A stretch of 64,000 nt of DNA. Origin: Thermoanaerobaculia bacterium. Its GTDB lineage: Bacteria; Acidobacteriota; Thermoanaerobaculia; Gp7-AA8. Position numbers and translations under genes: made by a program. The notes under the pieces were generated by a model, which was given only the letters and a program-made list of their open reading frames with translations, had not been told where the DNA came from and made no database searches. Shown here piece by piece: positions 3,933-61,375 of the stretch (positions are counted from its first letter, which is position 1; each line of letters starts with the position of its first letter). The DNA lies in assembly GCA_035544735.1 (NCBI GenBank), contig DATKCD010000035.1, positions 31,854 through 95,853 on the forward strand, in the 5' to 3' direction.

Positions 3933-4724
3933 GTGAGAACACTCGCAACCCGATTCGCGCCGATCGCGGCGCTCCTGCTCCTCGCCGGATGTGCGTCCGG
4001 CGGAGGCTTCAACCTGGTCTCGCTCGAGGAGGAATGGCAGCTCGGCCAGCAGCTCCACGCCGACATCGCCCGGCAGATGCCGCTCCTGAGCGACGCGACC
4101 GCAAACGCCTACATCAACCGGCTGGGCCAGCAGATCGTCTCGGAGACCGAGATGGCGCAGCTTCCCTGGCACTTTCACATCATCGACAGCCCGGAGATCA
4201 ATGCGATGAACATCCCGGGCGGACACGTCTACGTGACGACCGGGCTCATCGGAGCCGCCGACGACGTTTCCGAGCTCGCCGGCGTCGTCGCGCATGAAGT
4301 CGCGCACGGCGTCGAGCGTCACGCCACCGAGAACATGACGAAGGCCTATGGGCTCAACGTCCTCGCCTCGCTGCTTCTCGGTCAGGATCCGGCGATGTAC
4401 CAGCAGATTCTCGCTCAGATCGTCGGCGGCGGCGCGATGGCGAGCTTCGGGCGCGACGCCGAGCGCGAAGCCGACACCCTCGGCACGCGCTACATGTACC
4501 AGGCGGGCTACGATCCGAGAGGAATGGTGACCATGTTCGAGGAGCTGCTCCGCCGGCGCCAGCGGGAGCCGGGGGCGGTCGATCGTTTCTTCTCGACTCA
4601 CCCGCTGACGGAGTCGCGCATCGCCCAGGTTCGGAGCGAGATCGCCACCCTGCCGCAGCGAGCCAACCTGATCAGCAATACCCGGGATTACAACTCGTTC
4701 CGTTCCCGCTTCGGGCGGGGCTGA
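3933..4724 (+). CDS. M48-family zinc metallopeptidase lipoprotein (BepA/YcaL/LoiP-like)
   Basis: The HEXXH motif is HEVAHGVERH. A lipoprotein signal LLLAGCASG is present. The match to BepA/YcaL-type periplasmic M48 proteases is judged by eye. A GTG start with a CAGGAGG RBS is proposed. Confidence 0.8.
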   Translation: MRTLATRFAPIAALLLLAGCASGGGFNLVSLEEEWQLGQQLHADIARQMPLLSDATANAYINRLGQQIVSETEMAQLPWHFHIIDSPEINAMNIPGGHVYVTTGLIGAADDVSELAGVVAHEVAHGVERHATENMTKAYGLNVLASLLLGQDPAMYQQILAQIVGGGAMASFGRDAEREADTLGTRYMYQAGYDPRGMVTMFEELLRRRQREPGAVDRFFSTHPLTESRIAQVRSEIATLPQRANLISNTRDYNSFRSRFGRG

Positions 4725-6319: not shown

Positions 6320-7001
6320 CCTCAATTTTCACCCCGACGGCACCCTTTTCATCCTCTCCGGACCCTCCGGCGCGGGGAAGACGACCCTCATCACCCGCGC
6401 CCAAACCGATCTCACGCGCCTCGGGATCCAGCTCCATTTCTCGGTCTCTCACACGACACGTCAGAAAAGGAAAACCGAGGAGGAAGGGCGCGACTACTAC
6501 TTCGTCGAGCTCCCCGCCTTCGAGCAAATGATTCGAAACGGGGAATTTATCGAATGGGCGCACGTTCATGGCCAGATGTACGGGACCTCGAAGCAGGAGG
6601 TCCTGACGCGGCTCGAGCAGGGGGAGGACGTGATCCTCGACATCGACGTCCAGGGGGCGCGCCAGATCTCGGAGAATTCCGAGCTGCGGCCCCACTCGCT
6701 GAGTCTGTTCCTCTTTCCTCCGTCGTTCGAGGAGCTGGAACGGAGGCTGATCGAGCGGGGGCAGAACACGCCCGAAGAGATCTCGGTGCGGCTGGAGAAG
6801 GCGCTGCACGAGGTCGAATCGGGGATGCCGTTCTACGATTACGTGCTCATCAACGACGATCTCGAGATCGCGGTCGAAAGTCTCAAAGCGGCGGTCATGG
6901 CACGCAAGCTCCGGTCGAAATCGGCCATGGAGGCGCTGCACCAGATGGCGCGCAGGTTCAAGGAGGAACGGAGTGGATCGTTTACCCGAGGGAGTGGATA
7001 G
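6309..7001 (+). CDS. gmk: Guanylate kinase
   Basis: The P-loop GPSGAGKTT is present, together with the motifs SVSHTTRQKR..E..G.DY.F. Confidence 0.9.
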   Translation: MSSSLNFHPDGTLFILSGPSGAGKTTLITRAQTDLTRLGIQLHFSVSHTTRQKRKTEEEGRDYYFVELPAFEQMIRNGEFIEWAHVHGQMYGTSKQEVLTRLEQGEDVILDIDVQGARQISENSELRPHSLSLFLFPPSFEELERRLIERGQNTPEEISVRLEKALHEVESGMPFYDYVLINDDLEIAVESLKAAVMARKLRSKSAMEALHQMARRFKEERSGSFTRGSG

Positions 7002-7194
7002 CAAGTTCCGGTACGTGCTGCTGGTCTCGAAGAGGGCCGAGCACCTGATCCAGGGATCGCCGGCCAACGTGAAATCGAAGCACTTCAAGCCGACGCGTGT
7101 CGCGATGGAAGAGATCGAGCGGAAGGCCGTGGAATGGTCGCTGACGCCTCCGGAGCTTCCGTCGGAGGACGACGCGGACGAGATCGAAGAGTGA
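6973..7194 (+). CDS. rpoZ: DNA-directed RNA polymerase subunit omega
   Basis: A 73-aa ORF with SKFRYVLLVSKRAEHL and an acidic C-terminus. It overlaps the gmk end by 29 nt. Confidence 0.8.
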   Translation: MDRLPEGVDSKFRYVLLVSKRAEHLIQGSPANVKSKHFKPTRVAMEEIERKAVEWSLTPPELPSEDDADEIEE

Positions 7195-8399
7195 ACATCG
7201 TCCTCGGGATCTCGGGCGGCATCGCCGCCTACAAGGCGCCGGACCTGGTCCGGCGTCTCCGGGATGCCGGGGCGAGCGTTCGGGTCCTGATGACGCCGAA
7301 CGCGACGCGGTTCGTCTCCCCCCTTTCCCTCGCCGCGGTCTCCGAGAACGGCGTGATCCACGACCAGTGGGGAGACTCGGCGCACGGGGGAGTCGATCAC
7401 ATCGAGATCGCCCGCTGGGCCGAGCTGCTTCTCGTGGCCCCCGCCACGGCGAACGTCCTCGCGAAGATGGCGACAGGCATCGCCGACGATGCGCTGAGCA
7501 CCTACGCGGTGGCGCACCGCACCGACGTCATGGTCGCACCCGCCATGAACACTTGGATGTGGATGCACCCGACCGTCCGCGAGAATCTCGAGCGCCTCCG
7601 CGGACGGGGAGTCATCGTCCTCGATCCCGACTCGGGGCTGCTCGCCTGCGGCGACGAAGGGCTCGGCCGGATGCCCGACGTCCCGGCGATCGTCGAGCAG
7701 GTCCTCGCCGTGTTCGCCTCCCAGGACCTCGCCGGAAAGAGAGTCCTCGTCACCGCCGGCCCGACGCGCGAGCCACTCGATCCGGTCCGATACCTCTCGA
7801 ACCGCTCTTCGGGAAAGATGGGATATGCGGTCGCGGCCGCCGCACGGCGGAGAGGGGCGGAGGTCACTCTGATCTCGGGGCCCGTCTCGATCCCCGTCCC
7901 CCCCGGCGTCCGCCTGGTCCGCGTCAACACCGCCGCCGAGATGTACGAGCGCGTCCTCGAGGCGCTTCCCGGACACGACCTCGTCGTCAAGGCTGCCGCG
8001 GTCGCCGACTTCACCCCCGCAGACCCCGCCCGGCAGAAGATCCGGAAGACCCCCGGCTCGGACGAGCTGGTCCTGACGCTCAGCCGCACGCCCGACATCC
8101 TCGCCGAGATCGGGCGGCGCGATCCCCGCCCGCTCCTGGTCGCGTTCGCGGCGGAGACCGAGAACCTCGAGGAGCATGCGCGACGCAAGCTCGAGGCGAA
8201 GAACGTCGATCTGATCGTCGCGAACGACGTCGCCGACCGCTCGATCGGCTTCGACTCCGACAAGAACGCCGTCACGATCCTCGGACGCGACGGCTCCTCG
8301 GTCACGGTCGATCGCGCCGACAAGACGACCGTCGCGAACCGCATCCTCGACCGAGCCGTCGCCCTTCTTCCTCGGCGCGCCGCGGTTCCCAGGGTATAG
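7191..8399 (+). CDS. coaBC: Bifunctional phosphopantothenoylcysteine decarboxylase/phosphopantothenate-cysteine ligase
   Basis: The flavoprotein N-domain NIVLGISGGIAAYKAPDLVRRL is present, as are the CoaB C-domain motifs (KTPGSD...). A GTG start overlaps the rpoZ stop (GTGA). Longer upstream ORF starts lie in rpoZ. Confidence 0.9.
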   Translation: MNIVLGISGGIAAYKAPDLVRRLRDAGASVRVLMTPNATRFVSPLSLAAVSENGVIHDQWGDSAHGGVDHIEIARWAELLLVAPATANVLAKMATGIADDALSTYAVAHRTDVMVAPAMNTWMWMHPTVRENLERLRGRGVIVLDPDSGLLACGDEGLGRMPDVPAIVEQVLAVFASQDLAGKRVLVTAGPTREPLDPVRYLSNRSSGKMGYAVAAAARRRGAEVTLISGPVSIPVPPGVRLVRVNTAAEMYERVLEALPGHDLVVKAAAVADFTPADPARQKIRKTPGSDELVLTLSRTPDILAEIGRRDPRPLLVAFAAETENLEEHARRKLEAKNVDLIVANDVADRSIGFDSDKNAVTILGRDGSSVTVDRADKTTVANRILDRAVALLPRRAAVPRV

Positions 8400-8416
8400 C
8401 CGGGAGGCGCCCCCCC

Positions 8417-8868
8417 GGTGTGGTGCGGGCGTCCCGCGCGCCCCCGGGCGGGAGGCCGGTTCCGCAACGCCCCGGGAATCACAGAGTGACCGTGAACGCC
8501 GGAACTGATCCCGGCCCGCGCATGTGGCCGGGGAATTCATCCCCGGCGGGAGGGCGGTTCCGCGCCGAGACACTCCGCCTGTCAGGCAGTGGGGAGGAGC
8601 GAATGCAGAATGCAGAATGCAGAAGGAAGAATCCAGAAAGGGCGCGTGGCACGATCACGGTACGGCGAAGTCGCCATCGACCATTTCTGGATTCTTCCTT
8701 CTGCATTCTGCATTCTGCATTCCTTCTATTCCTTCTCAACGACGTCTGATCTTTCGACAGCCAGGAAGATCTTCATCGTTGTCCTGGACACTCCGACCTC
8801 CCGGCGCCCCTGGCCGGCGATTTCACGTGGCCGGGGATTTCCTGTGGCCGGGACGCCCGCACCACACC
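8417..8868. mobile_element. MITE-like 452-bp intergenic element with perfect 20-bp terminal inverted repeats (GGTGTGGTGCGGGCGTCCCG / CGGGACGCCCGCACCACACC) and nested internal inverted repeats
   Basis: The terminal inverted repeats at 8417-8436 and 8849-8868 are exact reverse complements. Internal direct copies of TGTGGCCGGGGA(A/T)TT occur near both ends. The element has lower GC than the flanking genes and lies between the coaBC stop (8399) and the udg start (8891). No transposase is encoded. Confidence 0.4.
8601..8722. repeat. Perfect 39-bp inverted repeat (arms 8601-8639 and 8684-8722) with a 44-nt loop; each arm is (GAATGCA)x3 + GAAGGAAGAATCCAGAAA
   Basis: Right arm TTTCTGGATTCTTCCTTCTGCATTCTGCATTCTGCATTC is the exact reverse complement of the left arm. 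The loop contains a smaller hairpin, GGCGAAGTCGCC. ORFs 8479..8739(-), 8524..8877(+) and 8589..9269(+) that read through this region are rejected. Confidence 0.9.
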
Positions 8869-8890
8869 CCGAGGTAGACTCTCTGCCGCG

Positions 8891-9634
8891 ATGTTGCGCC
8901 CCGACCTTCGGACCGAGCTGGAACTGCTTCGCGATCTCGGCCATACGCATCTCGATCTCAGGCGCGCGCGCGCGGCCCGGGGCGACGAGGCCGACTCCGG
9001 ATCGCTCGACGAGCTCCCGGCGGGTGAGGCCTCGACGCGCCTGCTCGAGGGCGTACCGCGCCCGGAGGACGTCGCTCCGATACCACTCCTCAGCCAGCTC
9101 GAAGCCGCCGCAAAGCGCTGCATCCTCTGCCGTCTGTCCGGAACGCGCACCCAGGTCGTGTTCGGAACCGGCAACCCCGCGGCCGATCTCCTGTTCGTCG
9201 GAGAGGCGCCGGGTCGCGACGAGGACCTCGAGGGAGAGCCGTTCGTCGGCCGCGCCGGAAAGCTGCTGACCGACATCATCGGAGCGATGAAGCTCTCCCG
9301 CGACGAGGTCTACATCGCCAACGTGATCAAGTGCCGGCCGCCCGGCAATCGCAATCCCGAGCCCGACGAGATGGCCGCCTGCCGTCCCTGGCTCGACCGG
9401 CAGATCGAGCTCATCGCCCCGAAAGTCATAGTCACCCTCGGCAAGTTCGCCGCCCAGCGTCTGCTCGGCCGCTCGGTCGCCATCACGGCCGTGCGCGGGG
9501 AGTGGCAGATCTGGCGCGGCATCCGCGTCATGCCGACCTACCACCCCGCCTATCTGCTTCGCACCCCCTCGGCCAAAAAGGACGTCTGGAAGGACATGCA
9601 GCAGGTGATGGTCGAGCTCGGGATCGCGCTCTGA
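8891..9634 (+). CDS. Uracil-DNA glycosylase, family 4 (thermostable/UdgA-like)
   Basis: The Cys motif [19 protein letters not shown] and the motif GRAG.LL are present. The N-terminal 75 aa upstream of the CxxC cluster have a composition typical of the genome. Confidence 0.8.
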
Positions 9635-28572: not shown

Positions 28573-29054
28573 GCACTCTGATTCCGATGACCATCAAGGG
28601 GCTGATGCTCGACCCGGTCTCCAATTCTCCCATCGTCGTCCTCAAGGACGGCGAGGAGAAGGTCTTCCTGCCGATCTGGGTCGGCGTGTTCGAGGCCAAT
28701 GCCATCGCCCTCCAGCTCGAGAACATCGACACCCCGCGGCCGATGACCCACGACCTGCTCCGGAACGTGATCTCCACGGTCGAGGGAACCGTGGAGCGGA
28801 TCGTCATCAGCGAGCTCCGCGAGTCGACCTTCTACGCCCTGATCCTCATGACCGTCGGAGGGAAGAGCCTCGAGATCGATGCCCGTCCCAGCGATGCGAT
28901 CGCCCTCGCACTCCGCACCGCCTCGCCGATCTTCGTCGAGCAGGCGGTCCTCGAACAGGCTCAGACCATCGTCCCCGAAGAGGACACCGACGACCGGCTT
29001 CGGAAGTGGTTCGAGAGCGTCAGCCCCGAGGACCTCGGAAAATACAAGATGTAG
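28569..29054 (+). CDS. Bifunctional nuclease domain (BFN/DUF151) protein
   Basis: The motifs VVLKDGEEKVFLPIWVG..EA.AIA and ARPSDAIALALR are present. A GTG start overlaps the miaB stop (GTGA); the alternative start is the ATG at 28587. Confidence 0.7.
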   Translation: MSTLIPMTIKGLMLDPVSNSPIVVLKDGEEKVFLPIWVGVFEANAIALQLENIDTPRPMTHDLLRNVISTVEGTVERIVISELRESTFYALILMTVGGKSLEIDARPSDAIALALRTASPIFVEQAVLEQAQTIVPEEDTDDRLRKWFESVSPEDLGKYKM

Positions 29055-29056
29055 GG

Positions 29057-29285
29057 GCGTCTTGGGCGTCTAGGGCGTCCTGGGCGTCTGGAGCGTCTGG
29101 AGCGTCTGGAGCGTCTGGAGCGTCTGGAGCGTCTGGAGCGTCTTGGGCGTCTGGGCTGTGCCAGCCGCGGTTTCCGCCGGATGAGAGCAAACGTCGAACC
29201 GCCGAAGAAGACTTCAGCGAAAGATGACGCCCCAGGCACACCGGACGCTCCAGACCCTCCAGACGCTCAAGACGCTCAAGACGCT
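29057..29285. repeat. Inverted tandem 9-bp repeat array, locus A: 11 units of GCGTCTGGA-like (29057-29155), an 85-bp spacer, then 5 units of the complement CCAGACGCT-like (29241-29285)
   Basis: Counted directly. The forward-unit variants TTGG/TAGG/CTGG/TGGA/TGGG have matching complementary variants in the reverse array. The locus fills the whole interval between the BFN stop (29054) and the parA start (29305). ORFs translating it (RRSRRS or ASGASG periodic peptides) are rejected. Confidence 0.9.
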
Positions 29286-30120: not shown

Positions 30121-30945
30121 ATGAAACGTGGACTTCCCGAACGCGCACGCATGCGACACGACGCCCACTTCGTCGACGAGCTCGCCAAACGATCCTCCGC
30201 CCACGTCGGATCGATGATCCCGCTCTCGCTCATCGAGCCCAATCCCGAGCAGCCGCGAACCAACATCGGGAACCTCGACGAGCTCACCGCATCGATCCGC
30301 GAGAAGGGGGTGCTCGAGCCGATCCTGGTCCGCCAGCTCGGCCCCGGCCGCTACCAGATCATCTCCGGAGAACGCCGCTTCCGCGCCGCCACCGCCGCCG
30401 GCCTCGAAGAGATCCCCGCCATCGAGTTCGACGCCGACGACCGCGAAGCCCTCGAGATCGCCCTGATCGAGAACATCCAGCGGAAGGACCTCACCCCCTT
30501 CGAAGAAGCCGAAGGGTTCCGGTTCCTCCAGGAGAAATTCGGCTACACCCATGAGAAGATCTCCCAGGTCCTCGGCAAATCCCGCACGACCATCACCGAA
30601 GTCCTCCAGCTCAATGAGATCCCCGACCGGATTCGCGTCCTCTGCCGCGAGGGGGGGATCGCCAGCAAGTCCGTCCTGGTCCAGATCGCCCGGGCGGGGA
30701 GTGAGGAGGCGATGGAGGAGCTGGTCGACCGCTTCTCCCGCGGCGAGATCACCCGCCAGGATGTCCGGAGAGCGACCTCCAGGAGGGTCGAGCCGAAGAA
30801 GGCCGGCCGCCCCCGGAACTACCGCTTCGATCTGAAGGACCGGAGCCTGCCGTTCACCCTCAGCCTCCGCTTCCGGAAGTCGGAAGTCGACAAGAAGGAA
30901 GTCATCGCCGCCCTCCGCGCGGTCATCGAGCGACTCGAGAAGTAG
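30121..30945 (+). CDS. parB: ParB/Spo0J-family partitioning protein
   Basis: The ParB-box GERRFRAA and the HTH KSRTTITEVLQL are present. The start may lie earlier, because ORF 30070..30945 begins upstream. Confidence 0.85.
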   Translation: MKRGLPERARMRHDAHFVDELAKRSSAHVGSMIPLSLIEPNPEQPRTNIGNLDELTASIREKGVLEPILVRQLGPGRYQIISGERRFRAATAAGLEEIPAIEFDADDREALEIALIENIQRKDLTPFEEAEGFRFLQEKFGYTHEKISQVLGKSRTTITEVLQLNEIPDRIRVLCREGGIASKSVLVQIARAGSEEAMEELVDRFSRGEITRQDVRRATSRRVEPKKAGRPRNYRFDLKDRSLPFTLSLRFRKSEVDKKEVIAALRAVIERLEK

Positions 30946-31174
30946 GCGTCTCGAGCGTCTAGGGCGTCTGGGGCGTCTGGTGCGTCTGGAGCGTCTGGAG
31001 CGTCTAGGGCGTCTGGAGCGTCTGGAGCGTCTTGGGCGTCTGGAGCGTCTTGGGCGTCTTGGGCGTCCTGAGCGTCGTGGCGGTATGGGGGGGGTGTCCC
31101 CTCGGAGAGTGCCGTGACGGCCCGGACGCCCAAGACGCTCCAGACGCCCAAGACGCCCAAGACGCCCAAGACGC
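30946..31174. repeat. Inverted tandem 9-bp repeat array, locus B: 15 forward units (30946-31080), a 40-bp spacer containing the mini-palindrome GGGGGGGGTGTCCCCTC, then 6 reverse-complement units (31121-31174)
   Basis: Counted directly. The array starts on the first base after the parB stop and ends about 125 bp before lptF-lptG. Confidence 0.9.
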
Positions 31175-41508: not shown

Positions 41509-44500
41509 ATGAGACGAATGCCCGCTCGCCCGCTCGGACTCTGTCTTCTGTTCGCGCTGCTCGCCGCATCGGCGAGCGCCCAATTCGTCGTGACCAATAC
41601 TCTCGACATCGGAGCCGGGTCGCTGCGCCAGGCGATCCTCGACAGCAACGCCTGCCTCGCGACGTGCGACATCGAATTCAATATCCTGGCCGGTTCGTGC
41701 CCGTCATCCGAGTGCCGGATCGAGGTCGCGTCCGCCCTTCCTTCGATCAGCGGGATCGGAAGCCCCACGGTGGACGGTACTACGCAGCAGATCTTCAACG
41801 GCTCGTTCGTAGTCGTCGACGGAAACGGGATCGCGGCCGACGGACTCACGCTGGCTGCGGCGAGCGTGACGGTCGACGGGCTGGCGGTGGTTGCCTTCGG
41901 AGGAGCGGGAATCCGGCTGACCTCTCCGGCGGGAGGAGCCGAGATCCTCAGCTCGAGAATCGGGACGTCCTTTGCGGGCTCCGTCGAAGGAAACGGCGGG
42001 GACGGGATCGCGGCCGACAGCGGGCTGCTGGGGGCTCTGATCTCGGGGAACACGATCGCGCACAACGGCGGATCGGGCGTCCGGATCGGGACCGACGACG
42101 GCGACCTGACTCCGAGCGGGGTCGAGCTCATCAGCAACTCGATCTTCGACAACGCTCTTCTCGGCATCGATCTCGGCACCCAGGGAGTGCTGGCGAACGA
42201 CGCGCTCGATCTCGACGCCGGCCCCAACGGTCTTCAGAACGCTCCGGTGCTCACTTCGGCGAGCTCGACTCCGAGCGGGATTCAGGTCGTCGGCCAGCTC
42301 GAGTCCGAAACCTCCCAGGACTATCGAATCGAGATCTACGGCAGCGCCGTCGCCGACCCGAGCGGTTTCGGCGAGGGAGAGATCCTGCTGAACTCGTTCA
42401 ACGCGGCCACGGATGCGTCCGGTGTGGCTCCCATCGATCAGGTTTTCTTCGCCTCCGGCTCCTCGTTCGACTCGATCACGGCCACGGCGACGAAAATCGA
42501 CCTCTCCGGGGGAGTCAACGAGACCTCCGAGTTCTCGAACGCGGTGCCCCTGCCGCATTCGTACATCGTGACGAACACCAACGACAGCGGCCTCGGGTCG
42601 CTTCGCGCCGCCATCGATGCCGCGAACTCGTTCGCCTGTGCTTATCCCTGCACGATTCTGTTCAACATCCCCGGGACCGGGCCGGTTTTCACCATCCAGC
42701 CGCTGACGCCCCTTCCGGCGATCGTCGTCGAGCAGGTGTTCATCGAGGGCTCGAGCCAGACCTCGTTCGGCGGCGATACGAACCCCTTCGGTCCCGAGAT
42801 CGACCTCGACGGCTCTCTCCTCTCGTCCGGACACGGCCTGCTGATCGATGCGGCGAGCACGTTCGTGGGGGGGGTCGGCATCGAAGGGCTCACGATCCGC
42901 AACTTCCCCGGCGACGGCATCCGCGTCGACGCGCCCGGCTCCTTCTCGAGCTCCGGCAACGCGTTTTTCAACTGTTACATCGGAACCGATCCGACCGGCA
43001 CTTCGGCCTCGCCGAACGGTGGCTACGGAATCGGCCTGTTCGGAGCCGCTCTGTCCAACTTCGTCGGCGATCCGTTCAACGACATCGGAAACCTGATCAG
43101 CGGGAACGCGGCGTTCGGCGTCTATGCCGGGATCTCTTCGGGCAGCCACATCGTGGTCTCGAATCTCATCGGCACCGATCGCACGGCGACGAGTCCGATT
43201 CCGAACGGGATGGGCGGCGTCTACGTCGACAGCGGCTTCAACCAGTTCGGATTCTTCAGCTCCCGCTTCATCGTCAATTCCGCGGGGGCGAGCGCCCTTT
43301 CCGCACCGGCCGATCCGTCCCGGCGGCTCGCGCGGCTCGCGGAGCGGGATCCGGCCTCGGATGAGCGGATCGCGTCGGCTCCGTGGGTCGTACGGCAACA
43401 GGCGCTCGCGGCGTCTCGGTCGTCCGCCCCGGCCGTCGCTCCTTCGTCGGTCGCTGCGCAGGGCGCGCTCCCCGCTCCGAGTGGAAACATCATCGCCTTC
43501 AACGACGGTCCGGGAATCGTACTCGACAACGGGGCGAGCGAGAACCTCGTCGCTCTGAACTGGATTCATTCGAACGACGGGGACGGAGTCCTGCTGACCG
43601 GCACCGCCGGCAACGGCAACTGGATCTCGGTGAACTCGATCCACGACAATGCCGGACTCGGAATCGACATCGACGCGGGCACGCAGAACGCCGACGGAGT
43701 CACCCAGAACGACGGCGCCGAGACGTTCGGCGAGCCGAACGACCTGGTCGACTATCCGACGATCGTGAGCGCGGTGTTCGACGGGACGAACACCGACATC
43801 ACATACACGTTCGCCTCCACCTCCGGGGCGTACCAGACGTATTACTTCGATTTCCACAAGGGTCCGACGCCCGACCCGAGCGGCTTCGGCGAAGGGGAGA
43901 CGTGGTTCGACTTTGACGCTCAGACGTATGGAATCACACCGCCGGACGGCACGACCCCGCACCTGCTCCGCTTCCCGATGGATCTGCGCGGAAACTGGAT
44001 CACCGCGACGACCGGAAGCGAGGTTTTCACGAGTACTTCGTTCTCGGTCTCCGAGTTCAGCGCAGCCGTCGCGGTTCAGGCTCTCGACCTCGGGATTGCC
44101 AAGAGCGGCCCCGCCACCGTCCTGGCCGGCCAGCCCTTCAGCTACACCCTCACCGTCACCAACTTCGGCCCCGACACTTCAGAACCCGTCGACGTGACCG
44201 ATACCCTCCCCGCCGGCACCGCCTTCGTCTCCGCTTCCGCGTCGTCCAGCACCCCGACGATCTGGTCGTGCAGCGAGACCTCGCCCGGGGTGGTCCTCTG
44301 CACGACGGGCGTCATGCTCGAGCTCGACGTCACGACGATCACGATCAACGTCGTCGCGCCGGGAAGCCCCGGCACGATCACGAACACCGCCGACGTGGCG
44401 ACGGGCGGAACCGACATCGACCCCGCGAACGACTTCTCGGCCGTCTCGACGACGGTCCTCCCCCCCGAGGCCGATCTCAAGATCGAAAAGAGCGGGCCGG

Positions 44501-47500
44501 CTTCGGTGCAGCCGGGACAGTCGTTCTCCTGGACGCTCGTCGTCACGAATCTCGGACCGGAGAGCGCCCTCGACCTCGGCCTGAACGACGTCCTCCCCGG
44601 CGGGGTGACGTCCGTCTCGTTCTCCGCTCCCGGCTGGACGTGCGCGTTCACTCCCTCGTCCGCCCCCTCCAGCGCCGGTTCGTTGAGCTGCTTCCGCCCG
44701 AGCCTCGCCGCGGGAGTCTCCTCCAGCATCACCATTCAGGTGACGGCACCGAACGGCTCCGCCACGCTCACCAACACGGCCGACGTCTTCTCGGAGACGA
44801 CCGACTCCAACCAGGCGAACAACGGCGCGACGGCGGTGACCGTGGTCGAGGATCCGTGCACCGTCGGCCGTCCGATCTCCGTCAGTCCGGTCGGCGAGAC
44901 CGCCGGTCCGCCGGTCGAGTTCGTCTTCGAGGCCGTCGCGGAGGCTACCGGCTATCAGATCATCCTCATCGGGCCGGACGGAGTCTCGCGCCAGCTCGCC
45001 TCGATCAGCGGCTCGGCTCCGGCGGGCGAGCAGATGCGCGTCACGGTGGAATCCGGAATTCCGAGCGGGCGCAACATCTGGTTCGCCCGAGCGCTCTTCA
45101 AACCTCCGTGTCGTACGGTGGATGGCAACCAGCTCGTCTTCTTCATCGACAGTTGCCCTACGGCGGTGCCCGAGCTGCTCGAGCCGGCGGGTGGCGTGGT
45201 GAACAGCCCGACGACCGTGTTCCGATGGACGCGGGTCGACGAGGCGACTCGGTACGACCTGTTCACCTCTCTCGACGGCGGCGGGTTCGTATTCGCCGGC
45301 TCGGTGAACCAGCCGGCCGATCCGAACGAGGTCCCCTCGCTCGAGCTCGCCGTCCCGGCCGGCGCCGCGATCGGCTGGTTCGTCGAGGTCTTCTTCGGAC
45401 CCGACTGTCCGGTCGGCCGCTCCGCGACGGAGGGCTTCGACGTCGCCTGCTTCGCTCCGGTCCTCTCGGTCCCGGGAGAGCTGAGCTCCGGCGAGCCGTA
45501 TCAGGTGCGCGCGACGATCGTCTCCGTGGGACGCGGTTACGAGTTCCAGGAGTCGACCTCCCCCGACTTCGACGAGAATCTGGTCGTCAGGGACGGGATC
45601 GTCGACGAGAGCGGCGAGTTCATCTTCGCGGAGTTCGAGCACGAGATCGTCGATGCGACCGCGTTCTTCTACCGCGTCCGCGTAGCGCAGACGGGCTGCC
45701 AATTCTCCGATCCGCCGGGACGCATCGTCATCATCCCGATCTCGCTCGACTCGGTCGCGCAGTTCGGCTTCGACTCGCCGATCAGCCGGGCGCTGTTCGT
45801 CCCCTCCCCCGACCCCGATTCGGAACTGAGCTTCAACTTCGTCGCCACGACGGATCGCGACTGGCTGACGGTCCAGCCGAATTCCGGCATCGTCGGACCC
45901 GAGGGCGTCACGCTCACCGTCGTGATCGACCCGGTCGACCTGCCGGTCGGCAGCACGATCGGCACGGTGCTCGTCGAGTTCACCGAGGTCGGCGCCTCCG
46001 GCAAATCGGCCCAATCCAATCATACGACGACGACTTCGACCTCGGTCTCGCTCACGCTCGTCACGCCGGTGACCAACACCGGCAAGTCCGGGCCGGTCGC
46101 CGAGTCGCTCGTCATTCCCGCGGTGGCGCACGCCGGCGGCGTGGCCTCCGCCTGGCGGACCGACGTCCGCCTGATCAACCTCGGAACGAGCGTGAAGAAA
46201 TACGCGCTCAATCTCACCGAGTCGGGCCAGGACGGGACCCAAAGCGGGAAGACGAGCGAGATCCAGCTCGCGCCCGGGCAGATCACGGCTCTCAACGACG
46301 TGGTCAAGCACTGGTACGGCATCGGATCCCTCCCCGGTGAGTCGGGCACGGGGACGCTCGAGATCCGGCCGCTCGACGCCGCCGGCAAGACGGCAGCGCA
46401 GACTCCCGTCACCCGCACGCTCGTCTCGCTGGCCTCGTCGCGGACCTACAACCAGACCACCACCGGCACGCTCGGCCAGTTCATCCCGGCGATTCCATTC
46501 GCGGCCTTCGTCGGACAGACCCCACCCGAGGCCGAGCAGAGGAGCGTGCTCTCGCTGCAGCAGCTCGCGCAGTCCACCGATTACCGCACCAACGTCGGAG
46601 TGGTCGAAGCGGCCGGCAAGTCGGCCACCGTCACGATGCGTTTCTTCGACGCCGCGGGGGTCGAGCTGTTCACCCTTCCGGTGACGCTCCAGCCGGGCGA
46701 GCACCGGCAGTTCGATCAGATCCTCGCCAAGAACGGGGTCGCGAACGTCGCGAGCGCGCGGGCGGAGCTCGAAGTGACCGGCGGAGACGGAAAGATCGCC
46801 GCCTACGCGTCGGTCATCGACAACCGGACGGGCGATCCCCTTCTGGTCCAGGCCGTCGATCTGGCGACGCTCGGCGCTCAGAAGTACGTCGTCCCCGGCG
46901 TCGCGCACTTCGAGACGGGCCAGGCGAACTGGAGGAGCGACCTCCAGCTCTTCAATGCCGGGCTCGCCTCGGTTCGCGCGCGGCTCGCCTTCTTCCGCCA
47001 GCAGGAGACCACCGCGGCGCAAACGGTCGAGGTCGACCTCGAGCCCGGAACCGTCACGGCTCTGAACGACATTCTGCAGAACACCTTCGGCGAGTCCAAC
47101 AGCGGCGGCGCCGTTCACGTCACGACCGACGTCGAGTCGCGGCTCGTCATCACCGGCCGCACCTACGACCAGCAGGAGGACGGCACCTTCGGACAGTTCA
47201 TCTCCGCCGTGACCGAGGAGCAGGCGATCGGCCTCGGCGACCGGCCGATGCAGGTGCTCCAGATGGAGGAGTCGGCGAAGGTCCGGACGAATCTCGGCCT
47301 GGTCGAGGTCACCGGACAGCCGGTCCTGATCGAGATCACCGCCCACCCGGCCGAGTCGCGCGTGAGCCCGACGATCCAGCTCAACCTCGCCGGCAACGAG
47401 TTCCGCCAGCTCAATCAGGTTCTGCGGATCCTCAACGCCGGCACCACCTACAACGCGCGCGTCTCTCTGCGCGTCATCGGAGGCAACGGCCGAATCGCCG

Positions 47501-47559
47501 CCTACGGATCGGCCATCGACAACAGCACTCAGGACCCGACCTACGTCCCCGGACAGTAG
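41509..47559 (+). CDS. Giant (2016 aa) secreted surface protein: 2x CSLREA-like N-modules (GSLRQAI / GSLRAAI), parallel beta-helix repeats, DUF11 repeat domains, and 4 C-terminal roughly 150-aa tandem repeats
   Basis: The signal peptide MRRMPARPLGLCLLFALLAASASA is present. The nonapeptide DPSGFGEGE recurs near aa 285 and aa 795, indicating an internal duplication. Three DUF11-like segments (LT..N.GP) are present. The C-terminal repeats share G.GKIAAY.S.IDN.T.DP. Confidence 0.75.
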   Translation: MRRMPARPLGLCLLFALLAASASAQFVVTNTLDIGAGSLRQAILDSNACLATCDIEFNILAGSCPSSECRIEVASALPSISGIGSPTVDGTTQQIFNGSFVVVDGNGIAADGLTLAAASVTVDGLAVVAFGGAGIRLTSPAGGAEILSSRIGTSFAGSVEGNGGDGIAADSGLLGALISGNTIAHNGGSGVRIGTDDGDLTPSGVELISNSIFDNALLGIDLGTQGVLANDALDLDAGPNGLQNAPVLTSASSTPSGIQVVGQLESETSQDYRIEIYGSAVADPSGFGEGEILLNSFNAATDASGVAPIDQVFFASGSSFDSITATATKIDLSGGVNETSEFSNAVPLPHSYIVTNTNDSGLGSLRAAIDAANSFACAYPCTILFNIPGTGPVFTIQPLTPLPAIVVEQVFIEGSSQTSFGGDTNPFGPEIDLDGSLLSSGHGLLIDAASTFVGGVGIEGLTIRNFPGDGIRVDAPGSFSSSGNAFFNCYIGTDPTGTSASPNGGYGIGLFGAALSNFVGDPFNDIGNLISGNAAFGVYAGISSGSHIVVSNLIGTDRTATSPIPNGMGGVYVDSGFNQFGFFSSRFIVNSAGASALSAPADPSRRLARLAERDPASDERIASAPWVVRQQALAASRSSAPAVAPSSVAAQGALPAPSGNIIAFNDGPGIVLDNGASENLVALNWIHSNDGDGVLLTGTAGNGNWISVNSIHDNAGLGIDIDAGTQNADGVTQNDGAETFGEPNDLVDYPTIVSAVFDGTNTDITYTFASTSGAYQTYYFDFHKGPTPDPSGFGEGETWFDFDAQTYGITPPDGTTPHLLRFPMDLRGNWITATTGSEVFTSTSFSVSEFSAAVAVQALDLGIAKSGPATVLAGQPFSYTLTVTNFGPDTSEPVDVTDTLPAGTAFVSASASSSTPTIWSCSETSPGVVLCTTGVMLELDVTTITINVVAPGSPGTITNTADVATGGTDIDPANDFSAVSTTVLPPEADLKIEKSGPASVQPGQSFSWTLVVTNLGPESALDLGLNDVLPGGVTSVSFSAPGWTCAFTPSSAPSSAGSLSCFRPSLAAGVSSSITIQVTAPNGSATLTNTADVFSETTDSNQANNGATAVTVVEDPCTVGRPISVSPVGETAGPPVEFVFEAVAEATGYQIILIGPDGVSRQLASISGSAPAGEQMRVTVESGIPSGRNIWFARALFKPPCRTVDGNQLVFFIDSCPTAVPELLEPAGGVVNSPTTVFRWTRVDEATRYDLFTSLDGGGFVFAGSVNQPADPNEVPSLELAVPAGAAIGWFVEVFFGPDCPVGRSATEGFDVACFAPVLSVPGELSSGEPYQVRATIVSVGRGYEFQESTSPDFDENLVVRDGIVDESGEFIFAEFEHEIVDATAFFYRVRVAQTGCQFSDPPGRIVIIPISLDSVAQFGFDSPISRALFVPSPDPDSELSFNFVATTDRDWLTVQPNSGIVGPEGVTLTVVIDPVDLPVGSTIGTVLVEFTEVGASGKSAQSNHTTTTSTSVSLTLVTPVTNTGKSGPVAESLVIPAVAHAGGVASAWRTDVRLINLGTSVKKYALNLTESGQDGTQSGKTSEIQLAPGQITALNDVVKHWYGIGSLPGESGTGTLEIRPLDAAGKTAAQTPVTRTLVSLASSRTYNQTTTGTLGQFIPAIPFAAFVGQTPPEAEQRSVLSLQQLAQSTDYRTNVGVVEAAGKSATVTMRFFDAAGVELFTLPVTLQPGEHRQFDQILAKNGVANVASARAELEVTGGDGKIAAYASVIDNRTGDPLLVQAVDLATLGAQKYVVPGVAHFETGQANWRSDLQLFNAGLASVRARLAFFRQQETTAAQTVEVDLEPGTVTALNDILQNTFGESNSGGAVHVTTDVESRLVITGRTYDQQEDGTFGQFISAVTEEQAIGLGDRPMQVLQMEESAKVRTNLGLVEVTGQPVLIEITAHPAESRVSPTIQLNLAGNEFRQLNQVLRILNAGTTYNARVSLRVIGGNGRIAAYGSAIDNSTQDPTYVPGQ

Positions 47560-59372: not shown

Positions 59373-60524
59373 CTATCGGAGCCACTCCTTCGGGTCGGTC
59401 GGCCTGTTGTCCTCCCGGATCTCGAAATAGAGCGATCCGGAGTCTCCCTCTTCGTCTTCCGCGACGAGCGCCACGCGCTGGCCGGCGGCGATCCGGTCAC
59501 CCACGCTCAACGCGGCCCCCCGCGTGTTTCCGTAGAGCGAAAAGACGCGGTCGCCATGATCGAGGATGATCAGATTCCCGTATCCTCTGAACCACTGGGC
59601 AAATAGAACTGTTCCCGCGTAGACCGCGCGGACCTCGTTTCCGGGGGCGGTCCCGATGCGGATCCCATTGTTGACGATCCAGGTGTCGAACTCGGTGCTG
59701 CGCTGGCGGCCGTAGTCCTCGACGATGGCGCCGCGGACGGGCCAGTCGAGAGCCCCCTTGAACTCCCGGACGCTGACCGAGACCGAGGGGTGGAGGTTCT
59801 GACTGTAGAGGAGCTCGAAAAGGCGCTCGAGGCGGCGGGCCTTCTCTTCGAGCTCGGCGAGCCTGGCGGCCGAGCGGCGCGACTCGCTGCGCAGGCGTGC
59901 GAGGACTCGCTCCTTCTCGAGGCGCTTCTGCTCGGCTGCCGCCCGCCGGCCGGCCGCGAGCTTGCGAGTCCGCTCGATCTCCCCTTCCTTCTCCGCCAGG
60001 CGCCCCTCCTCGAGCACGAGCCGCTCCTGCGCCGCCTGGAACGCCGAGACCGCCCGCGCATCGCGTCCCACCAGATAGGCGAGCATCGCCGCCCCTTCGA
60101 GCGGATTTCGCCGCGGATCGATCGAAAGCAGCATCCGCAGATACGGCACGCGACCCATCCGGTAGAGCATCGAGAGGCGCGTCGTCAGATATCCGCGGTG
60201 CCGGCGGAGGTCCTGGTTGATCGCGAACACGCGGTCGGCGATCTCGCGCCGCTGGCTCTCGAGGCGCGAGGCGGTCTCGAGCGCCGCCTCGAGCTCCCGG
60301 GTGACGATCCCGAGCTCGAGATCGATCGTCTGAAGCTCGTTCTCCAGGGTCCCCGCCTGCCGGCGAACCGAGTCCAGACGCCCGCGGAGCTGGCGGATCT
60401 CGCCGCGCAGCCGGTCCAGCTCCGCTTCGTGATCGCGTCGCTGCCCGTGAAGCGATCCGGCGAGCAGGAGGATCGCGAGAGATGCGGCGCCGAGCCGCCT
60501 TCCCGGGAGCCACGCCGGCATCAC
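59373..60524 (-). CDS. M23-family peptidase with N-terminal coiled coil (EnvC-like murein hydrolase activator)
   Basis: A long coiled coil is followed by the LytM-domain motifs GNLIILDHG and YGN. Confidence 0.8.
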   Translation of the reverse strand: MMPAWLPGRRLGAASLAILLLAGSLHGQRRDHEAELDRLRGEIRQLRGRLDSVRRQAGTLENELQTIDLELGIVTRELEAALETASRLESQRREIADRVFAINQDLRRHRGYLTTRLSMLYRMGRVPYLRMLLSIDPRRNPLEGAAMLAYLVGRDARAVSAFQAAQERLVLEEGRLAEKEGEIERTRKLAAGRRAAAEQKRLEKERVLARLRSESRRSAARLAELEEKARRLERLFELLYSQNLHPSVSVSVREFKGALDWPVRGAIVEDYGRQRSTEFDTWIVNNGIRIGTAPGNEVRAVYAGTVLFAQWFRGYGNLIILDHGDRVFSLYGNTRGAALSVGDRIAAGQRVALVAEDEEGDSGSLYFEIREDNRPTDPKEWLR

Positions 60525-61237
60525 GACCTCGCCCTGGCCGGGATCAGCTTCAGCGCCTCCCGCGCCGCCTGCTGCTGCGCCTCTTTCTTCGACGACCCCG
60601 TCCCCTTCGCGCTCACCCGGTTCGGAAGCGAGACCTCGACCACGAATCTCTTGTCGTGATCAGGGCCGATTTCCTCCACGACGGCGTACTCGGGAAGCGG
60701 CAGCCCCATTGCCTGCACCACTTCCTGGAGCGCGGTCTTGTAGTCCTGAAAGAGCAGATCGTTCTCGTCGAGCTCCATGAGGTCCGCCTCGAACGATCGC
60801 TCGATGAGCTCGCGGACCGGCTCGACCCCTCCATCGAGATAGATCGCGGCGATGACGGCCTCGAACAGGTTCGCGAGGAGCGAGTCCTTGTTGCGGCCGC
60901 CCGACTTCTCTTCGCCGACCCCGAGCCTCAGCGCCTCCCCCATGCCGAGGCTCCGAGCCTTGCGCGCGAGGCTGGTCGAGCTGACCAGGAACGCCTTCAT
61001 CTTCGACAGCGCCCCTTCATCGAGCGCCGGAAACCGCCCGAACAGGATGTCGCCGACCAGAAACCCGAGGACCGAGTCGCCGAGAAACTCGTAGGTCTCG
61101 TTGTCGCCGACCTCGCGATCCTTCGACTCGTGGGAGAACGACTTGTGAGTGAGGGCCCTGCGGAGGAGGTCTCGACTGGCGAAACGATAGCCGAGCCGGG
61201 ACTCGAAAGCGTCGAGATCGTTCTCGATGGTGCTCAA
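60521..61237 (-). CDS. rnc: Ribonuclease III
   Basis: The RNase III signature ETYEFLGDSVL is present, with a dsRBD at the C-terminus. The start is set at TTG 61237. The annotated ORF extends to 61360 only by reading antisense through the tRNA-Phe gene (GGSIPSLGT peptide). Confidence 0.8.
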   Translation of the reverse strand: MSTIENDLDAFESRLGYRFASRDLLRRALTHKSFSHESKDREVGDNETYEFLGDSVLGFLVGDILFGRFPALDEGALSKMKAFLVSSTSLARKARSLGMGEALRLGVGEEKSGGRNKDSLLANLFEAVIAAIYLDGGVEPVRELIERSFEADLMELDENDLLFQDYKTALQEVVQAMGLPLPEYAVVEEIGPDHDKRFVVEVSLPNRVSAKGTGSSKKEAQQQAAREALKLIPARARS

Positions 61238-61299
61238 CGAATCCCAGTATAGACGATCGGACCTCTCACACAGGACAAGTCCAGCGGATGAAGAGAGGA

Positions 61300-61375
<76 letters not shown>

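Follow-up and report, generated by a model that had tools for sequence, protein, structure and literature searches.

The coaBC-udg spacer and its repeats

We analysed a 64,000-nucleotide stretch of contig DATKCD010000035.1 from a Thermoanaerobaculia bacterium (referred to as the window) and within it the intergenic spacer between coaBC and udg, which contains a repeat-rich segment of 452 bp at positions 8417-8868. The original prediction, which was based on the letters of the sequence, described this segment as resembling a miniature transposable element with inverted repeats (MITE) of lower GC content, bounded by perfect 20-bp inverted repeats and enclosing a second inverted repeat of 39 bp. 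The identities that it assigned to the two flanking genes are borne out by Pfam. The spacer between these genes measures 491 bp and, together with them, is laid out as follows.

7134..8399, + strand: coaBC, the upstream gene (Pfam DFP, 4.5e-75; Flavoprotein, 1.2e-34)
8400..8418, + strand: small GC hairpin CCGGGAGG-CGC-CCCCCCGG, 7/8 pairs, beginning 1 nt past the coaBC stop codon
8417..8452, + strand: left copy of a repetitive extragenic palindrome (REP); GTGG-tagged head GGTGTGGTGCGGGCGTCCCG at 8417-8436, then about 16 nt of REP body and spacer
8443..8465, + strand: first copy of a 23-nt direct repeat, CCCGGGCGGGAGGCCGGTTCCGC, 91% identical to 8541-8563 (repeat search, BLAST)
8524-8547, + strand: second GTGG-tagged stem-loop (GTGG, GCCGGGGA-ATTCA-TCCCCGGC), 8-bp stem, 5-nt loop
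8541-8563, + strand: second copy of the 23-nt direct repeat, following the GTGG stem-loop
8601..8642, + strand: left hairpin arm of six GAA-phased heptads (GAATGCA three times, GAAGGAA, GAATCCA, GAAAGGG); period 7 in Tandem Repeats Finder (TRF)
8643..8680, no strand: hairpin loop, 38 nt, GC-rich
8681..8722, + strand: right hairpin arm, (TGCATTC)3 and remainder
8811..8852, + strand: 17-nt tandem repeat TGGCCGGGGATTTCACG, 2.5 units, continuing into the right REP (TRF score 63)
8846..8868, - strand: right REP copy, inverted with its head outward; stem degenerate, 4/6 pairs; exact 20-mer on the - strand
8873..8878, + strand: TAGACT, resembling a -10 element and lying 12 nt upstream of the udg ATG; TACACT in the relatives at the corresponding position (spacer comparison)
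8891..9634, + strand: udg, the downstream gene, uracil-DNA glycosylase superfamily (Pfam UDG, 5.2e-42)

The lower GC content that had been ascribed to the segment as a whole applies only to its middle: values of 0.48-0.53 are confined to about 8600-8800, whereas the outer part at 8400-8600 reaches 0.70-0.80, at or above the window mean of 66.9%. That no credible open reading frame (ORF) is present was correctly noted, as the three ORFs crossing the segment show neither a Pfam hit nor the signature of GC at third codon positions (GC3), and we rejected a coding role.

The outer 20-mer resembles the head of a dispersed REP family

The 20-mer GGTGTGGTGCGGGCGTCCCG at 8417-8436 has its exact reverse complement at 8849-8868, in agreement with the original prediction. 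With up to 3 mismatches allowed it finds 2 matches in the window, compared to 0 in 100 shuffles. When one genome per GTDB species was scanned for exact matches, the 20-mer was recovered at 24 loci, nearly all in metagenome-assembled genomes (MAGs) of Acidobacteriota (Thermoanaerobaculia, Terriglobia and unclassified members), 11 of them in the single MAG MFD03899.bin.2.39; one Verrucomicrobiales and one Coriobacteriales MAG carry it as well. In these other genomes the usual form of the repeat is GGTGTGGTGCGGGCGTCCCGCCCGC, with an unpaired GTGG tag ahead of a GCGGGC/GCCCGC stem and the overall anatomy GTGG-TGC-GGGCG-TCC-CGCCC-GC(A). An inverted partner (2-4 mismatches) stands at a distance of 74-124 bp in 8 loci, while in 3 loci the pairs are wider (174, 312 and 592 bp apart), and crude GC3-based gene calls place 28 of 38 REP copies outside genes. 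REPs with a GTAG tag are known to form head-to-head dimers with spacers of 20-100 bp, and the verrucomicrobium Opitutus terrae has a documented GTGG variant (PMC3733652). Because the 20-mer occurs at dispersed loci, and its GTGG tag, stem and inverted pairs match the anatomy of GTAG/GTGG REPs, we assign it on sequence grounds to the head of a dispersed REP family and not to the terminus of a MITE. To our knowledge, this REP family has not been described in Acidobacteriota.

The likeness reaches beyond the 20-mer on the left side, where the roughly 16 nt of body and spacer are homologous to REP dimers of other genomes. The left copy (37 nt at 97% to locus L015, 39 nt at 92% to L011) has 36-39 nt in common with REPs elsewhere and the right copy 23-25 nt. 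The left stem is degenerate (GCGGGC/GCGCGC, 5/6 pairs) with an intact tag. Reliable alignment to REP dimers is restricted to 8417-8452 and 8844-8868; an alignment across the whole segment as a split REPIN, a REP doublet forming a hairpin, was rejected, as the small blocks between the REP ends amount to alignment noise. The 412 bp between the two repeats are also unlike the short spacers of inverted dimers (about 20-100 bp), so that the window pair is at best a split or filled-in dimer, or else two single copies.

In some relatives, GC3-based calls place REP dimers within long ORFs (L005 1364-1442, also L015 and L012). In L005 the reading frame crosses the REP dimer to a TGA that overlaps the ATG of the next gene. 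Such dimers may be in-frame intragenic REPs, as in Opitutus terrae, or an artefact of gene calling.

The inner hairpin and its family

Over 39 nt (8601-8639/8684-8722) the inner inverted repeat is free of mismatches and contains (GAATGCA)3, both as predicted; allowing one mismatch, its length is 42 nt (8601-8642/8681-8722; 98% complementarity) around a loop of 38 nt that pairs internally in the fold, so that the structured loop proposed earlier also holds. The predicted RNA folding energy of this hairpin is -87.8 kcal/mol on the + strand and -90.3 kcal/mol on the - strand, compared to about -36 kcal/mol for shuffles (z about -14). It begins 201 nt past the coaBC stop codon.

A BLAST search of the segment against the fetched loci identified a homologous hairpin at L005 2109-2258 in MAG MFD03899.bin.2.39, which begins a few nucleotides beyond the stop codon of the upstream ORF. 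Its arm matches heptad by heptad (AAATGCA GAATGCA AAATGCA GAATGTA AAATCCC AAAAGGG), and the six heptads of the window run in phase with L005 2116-2157 as well as with L072. Scanning metagenome contigs for three consecutive RAATGCA units returned at least 120 loci, of which at least 72 have a GC content of 0.57 or more, and the high-GC matches listed include at least 38 further (RAATGCA)n-loop-(TGCATTY)n hairpins in 35 loci. Among the matches listed, arms span 17-65 nt, loops 4-90 nt with one outlier of 290 nt, and the hairpins are typical of high-GC contigs (0.57-0.70); neither loops nor flanks are conserved between family members. The REP 20-mer is absent, at up to 4 mismatches, from all 120 RAATGCA loci listed. 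Because none of these loci has a REP, the RAATGCA hairpin is, judged by its distribution, a family separate from the REPs and native to high-GC genomes. The low GC, which had been read as a sign of foreign origin, is therefore intrinsic to the hairpin and does not mark the DNA as foreign. Neither repeat has an exact match in IMG/VR, and we rejected a viral origin as no viral contig there carries either of them.

Between the outer and inner repeats lie further, smaller duplications. The stretch 8524-8563, which combines the second GTGG-tagged stem-loop with the second copy of the 23-nt direct repeat, looks like another REP-like unit in direct orientation relative to the left REP. The direct repeats reported near both ends are present, namely TGTGGCCGGGGAATT at 8523-8537 and CGTGGCCGGGGATTT at 8826-8840, but they differ by one mismatch rather than being identical, and the right copy is part of the 17-nt array. 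Of 300 shuffles, only 1 attained the direct similarity seen between this array (8811-8852) and 8510-8538. The two inner flanks (8437-8600, 8723-8848) lack complementarity to each other (210 of 300 shuffles paired as well), for which reason a foldback structure of the entire 452 bp was rejected.

Comparison with relatives

The best CoaBC homologues are 73-75% identical to the protein of the window, and a contig of MAG MFD03899.bin.2.39 encodes one of these homologues. The gene order M48 peptidase, yicC, gmk, rpoZ, coaBC, udg, priA, hypothetical, accA, recJ is common to five contigs and the window. In all five relatives the coaBC-udg spacer measures 80-96 bp, compared to 491 bp in the window, and contains neither the REP nor the heptamer hairpin. 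Because of these short spacers lacking both repeats, the comparison identifies the additional ~400 bp as a lineage-specific gain. According to the original prediction, a single-copy segment conserved at this position across relatives and absent elsewhere would point to a locus-specific regulatory structure; instead, the relatives lack the segment, and both repeat types occur elsewhere.

A TAGACT or TACACT hexamer is retained 8-12 nt upstream of the udg ATG in 6 of 6 genomes (the window and L025-L029). The copy at 8873-8878 is a probable udg promoter element, and its position suggests a promoter from which a udg mRNA with no leader, or a very short one, would start. The repeat cluster is situated downstream of the coaBC stop codon and upstream of this hexamer. 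Given the shared hexamer, the extra DNA is therefore located between the coaBC stop codon and the probable udg promoter, with neither being disrupted. Stop-proximal hairpins comparable to the one at 8400-8418 can be read from the spacers of the relatives and lend weak support to the idea that it may be an ancestral coaBC 3' hairpin; folding of 8400-8480 was no better than that of shuffles (z -0.49).

A likely nest of two palindromic repeat families

Taken as a whole, the segment is in our judgement likely to be a nest resembling a bacterial interspersed mosaic element (BIME), in which a pair of GTGG-tagged REPs surrounds an RAATGCA-heptamer hairpin, rather than a discrete MITE. The spacer would have grown by ~400 bp through the build-up of two unrelated kinds of palindromic repeat, one nested in the other. 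Most of this DNA would be of an ordinary selfish or structural intergenic kind. The outer layer would consist of a head-outward inverted pair of GTGG REPs together with one or more additional REP-like units and short duplications of local sequence, and the REPs would, by analogy, arrive as single-stranded hairpins by means of a REP-associated Y1 (HUH) transposase. The inner layer could have arisen by insertion of the RAATGCA hairpin or by slippage combined with copying between the arms. A read-through transcript from coaBC would fold into a perfect duplex of 39-42 bp (about -88 kcal/mol) that might pause or terminate transcription, block 3'-exonucleases or be cleaved by RNase III, which is encoded in the window. 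A duplex of this length would be an ideal target for RNase III and a strong obstacle to exonucleases and RNA polymerase. On this model the cluster would probably act as an RNA 3' end or RNase III barrier, and such a barrier would uncouple the two genes, allowing coaBC and udg to be expressed independently.

Several observations weigh against this reading. The stems of both REP copies are degenerate, and the identities of 20/20 and 39/39 would also be compatible with a composite unit of recent origin. In 4 other loci REPs adjoin heptamer arrays, and the two may therefore be one system, not two. In 64 kb of the source genome we find only two REP copies and one heptamer hairpin, so that neither family is shown to be multi-copy there. 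When all ORFs of 80 aa or more from the window and ~0.85 Mb of loci were compared with E. coli RayT by phmmer, no hit fell below E=0.4, and Pfam detects no Y1_Tnp in 10 ORFs beside REPs in the MAG loci, all of which are unrelated to transposition; the assumed route by which REPs spread is therefore unsupported here. As for the proposed role in RNA, there are 0 terminator-like sites in 8200-9100, the hairpin stem being AT-rich with no T-run behind it. Two strand-specific tests, the ratio of G.U to A.C mismatches on the sense strand (14:5, p=0.06) and the comparison of sense and antisense folding energies (13:7), both tilt towards the sense strand and are not significant.

Alternative explanations

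The alternative closest to the original prediction is a discrete 452-bp non-autonomous transposon, a MITE or foldback element whose 20-bp ends are recognised by a transposase encoded elsewhere and for which the hairpin is mere cargo. We regard it as unlikely. The part of the proposal that stands is that the segment consists of inserted, repeat-derived DNA that is missing from the orthologous spacer of relatives, and the perfection of the terminal repeats and the dispersal of their sequence in related genomes would also follow from it. REP pairs 312-592 bp apart do enclose other sequence in L014 and L019, but the usual partner spacing is 74-124 bp. Furthermore, no second copy of the 452-bp unit or of its interior (8437-8848) was detected in the window, by pattern search or word-7 BLAST, or in 149 fetched loci from Acidobacteriota and metagenomes, members of the separate heptamer hairpin family aside; the interior is likewise without a second copy in the 24 REP loci and in the 120 hairpin loci listed, and it contains local duplications and a hairpin belonging to an independent family. 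The search for whole-element copies with target-site duplications that had been proposed thus returned none in the window or the fetched loci, and no target-site duplication is recognisable at the segment itself, where the flanks CCCCCCC on the left and CCGAGG on the right share only CC, which is meaningless at 70-80% GC. Nor is a cognate transposase encoded nearby: among the ~50 window ORFs with coding GC3, Pfam scans gave housekeeping genes only and no transposase, integrase, invertase, recombinase or Y1 transposase.

A structured non-coding RNA gene, or an attenuator specific to udg or coaBC, which had been put forward as the second option, is very unlikely. The segment does lie between two genes on the same strand, and its predicted stability is high (z of -9.6 and -11 when the segment is folded as a whole, and of -14 for the inner hairpin), but this stability stems wholly from the perfect repeats, which fold equally well on both strands. 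The structure is conserved at this position in 0 of 5 relatives with the same gene order, and family members do not conserve their loops or flanks. Rfam, at gathering as well as permissive thresholds, returned only sub-threshold, chance-level look-alikes of miRNA hairpins (39.5 bits compared to a gathering threshold of 67).

An invertible switch, in which a site-specific recombinase would flip the 412 bp between the 20-bp repeats and thereby alter udg expression, is highly improbable. Inverted repeats around a few hundred bp beside a gene start do have the fitting geometry, and the minus strand has one sigma-70-like match (8739-8712). Against the switch, the 64 kb encode no recombinase, the segment does not include the udg -10-like element, and the normal distance between paired copies of the 20-mer at many unrelated loci is 74-124 bp, as is characteristic of REPs.

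Tandem-arm hairpins at other loci

Returning to the nest of REPs and heptamer hairpin, the two kinds of repeat are found together elsewhere. In one MAG, a REP dimer is located inside the loop of a (GTTCTCC)n ... (GGAGAAC)n hairpin at both L017 1700-1930 and L011 5150-5475, the reverse of the order in the window, where the REPs are outside and the heptamer hairpin inside. At L024 340-475, in the Verrucomicrobiales MAG, an AACGTTC array of ~17 units abuts a REP, and in L019 other palindromic repeats lie between the two REPs of the pair that is 592 bp apart. This suggests that the two kinds of repeat are physically associated beyond chance expectation. The loops of palindromes seem to be preferred sites for the landing or growth of the other repeat kind, a preference that one would predict if single-stranded hairpin DNA is the substrate of insertion.

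Hairpins of similar design, with arms made of short tandem units, also occur elsewhere in the window, each starting 0-3 nt past a stop codon.

29053-29285: 9-mer hairpin 1, past the stop codon of a bifunctional-nuclease-domain gene
30943-31174: 9-mer hairpin 2, past the parB stop codon
33630-33855: 9-mer hairpin 3, past the lptFG stop codon

Their arms read (GCGTCTGGA)n ... (TCCAGACGC / CCAAGACGC / CCGAGACGC)n with unequal copy numbers between the two arms, and their predicted RNA folding energies range from -135 to -181 kcal/mol. Relatives carry hairpins of like design at gene 3' ends, with units of 7, 8 or 9 nt that include GGGTCTAGG, GTCTGGGA and CATTCAA:

L029: 8016-8180, 10618-10767 and 12289-12458
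L007: 6395-6563
L011: 5909-5992
L013: 525-665

The units of tandem-arm hairpins thus comprise RAATGCA, GTTCTCC, CATTCAA, GTCTGGGA, GCGTCTGGA and GGGTCTAGG, and since the arms are tandem arrays, pairing is possible in more than one register. By hand count, about 22 of 49 such hairpins lie within 15 nt of a stop codon or gene 3' end. The three hairpins of L029 follow udg, priA and accA in the udg-priA, priA-hypothetical and accA-recJ spacers, in which the window has none. Tandem-arm hairpins have therefore been gained and lost at orthologous spacers, and this pattern across the compared contigs indicates that they undergo rapid gain and loss.

Our literature search returned work on REPs and REP-associated tyrosine transposases (RAYTs) and on TAACTGA heptamers, and nothing on tandem-arm hairpins in Acidobacteriota. 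While the REP adds a new member to a known kind of repeat, the tandem-arm hairpin family appears to be a new variant of intergenic palindrome and the more interesting lead. We put forward only tentatively the possibility that tandem-arm hairpins form an undescribed, widespread intergenic class in Acidobacteriota and other high-GC soil bacteria, usually beginning at a stop codon or just past it. The segment in the window would then exemplify a palindrome system of two components by which the ends of transcription units are marked.

Another dispersed palindrome, TGTCATCC(C/T)GAGCG(A/T)AGCGA(G/A)GGATCT, was observed in several Acidobacteriota MAG loci and, in L019, lies between two GTGG REPs. Its positions are as follows.

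L003: 1747-1928
L006: 2625-2817
L008: 4134-4228
L017: 6214-6292
L019: about 4145-4560

Relation to known systems

The segment shares with REPs, REPINs and BIMEs the GC-rich stem-loop, the unpaired GT(A/G)G tag and the dispersed, mostly extragenic copies in related genomes, as well as head-outward dimers with spacers of tens of bp and clusters with local tandem duplications (PMC3733652). Unlike in those systems, the REPs of the window stand 412 bp apart around an unrelated hairpin and have degenerate stems, neither the window nor the loci yielded a RAYT gene, and the same exact 20-mer spans several Acidobacteriota classes together with the Verrucomicrobiales and Coriobacteriales MAGs. Bacterial MITEs such as Correia, ERIC and Nezha are comparably small, non-coding and intergenic, with terminal inverted repeats, a stable hairpin and differences in presence and absence; in contrast to them, the segment has a mosaic interior and lacks a repeated whole unit, a target-site duplication and, as far as the window extends, a parent insertion sequence with matching ends.

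Eukaryotic Foldback elements have long inverted arms composed of short tandem repeats. The hairpins described here resemble them in having arms of short tandem units (7-9 nt) whose number varies between arms and between copies, and differ in their bacterial host, in measuring tens of bp and not kb, in having no known transposase and in being tied to gene 3' ends. A likeness also exists to those stop-codon-proximal REPs that stall ribosomes and to 3' stem-loops that stabilise or terminate mRNAs, according to work cited in PMC12306157: the distance to a stop codon is at most 15 nt for the start of many relatives of the inner hairpin and of the window's three 9-mer hairpins, whereas the focal hairpin starts 201 nt from that of coaBC and no U-tract terminator was found. 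Finally, direct repeats of the heptamer TAACTGA occupy many intergenic regions of Beggiatoaceae and Cyanobacteria, in several lineages and with no known route of spreading (PMC4679880). They have in common with the RAATGCA repeats that one heptamer is reiterated intergenically in several lineages, but they employ a different heptamer and form unpaired, direct arrays just upstream of start codons.

For annotation, the likely nest implies that the segment should be entered as a local repeat nest and not as a transposon with ends of its own, a gene or foreign DNA. In a wider sense, this group of Acidobacteriota would possess two abundant families of intergenic palindromes, the GTGG REP and the stop-codon tandem-arm hairpins, for which we found no description in the phylum. 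If the hairpins mark transcript ends, they could help to trace the limits of operons in this phylum, in which canonical terminators are few, and would offer a natural system in which to study the tolerance and renewal of long perfect palindromes in the chromosomes of bacteria.

Further features of the window

Other genes of the window bear on the gene models used above or are unrelated to the segment.

6973-7194: rpoZ, a 73-aa ORF matching RNA_pol_Rpb6 (RNA polymerase omega, Rpb6/RpoZ)
41509-47559: 2016-aa ORF with DUF11, CARDB and beta-helix repeats
60521-61360, - strand: RNase III (rnc)
61300-61375, - strand: tRNA-Phe

The rpoZ ORF overlaps the 5' end of the 421-aa coaBC ORF. Because rpoZ occupies 6973-7194 and the CoaBC proteins of relatives comprise 393-404 aa, the true coaBC start probably lies near 7191, not at 7134. 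The tRNA-Phe gene overlaps the RNase III ORF as called, and the real RNase III start probably lies further downstream than the first start codon of this ORF. The 2016-aa ORF probably encodes a large surface protein and is unrelated to the segment.

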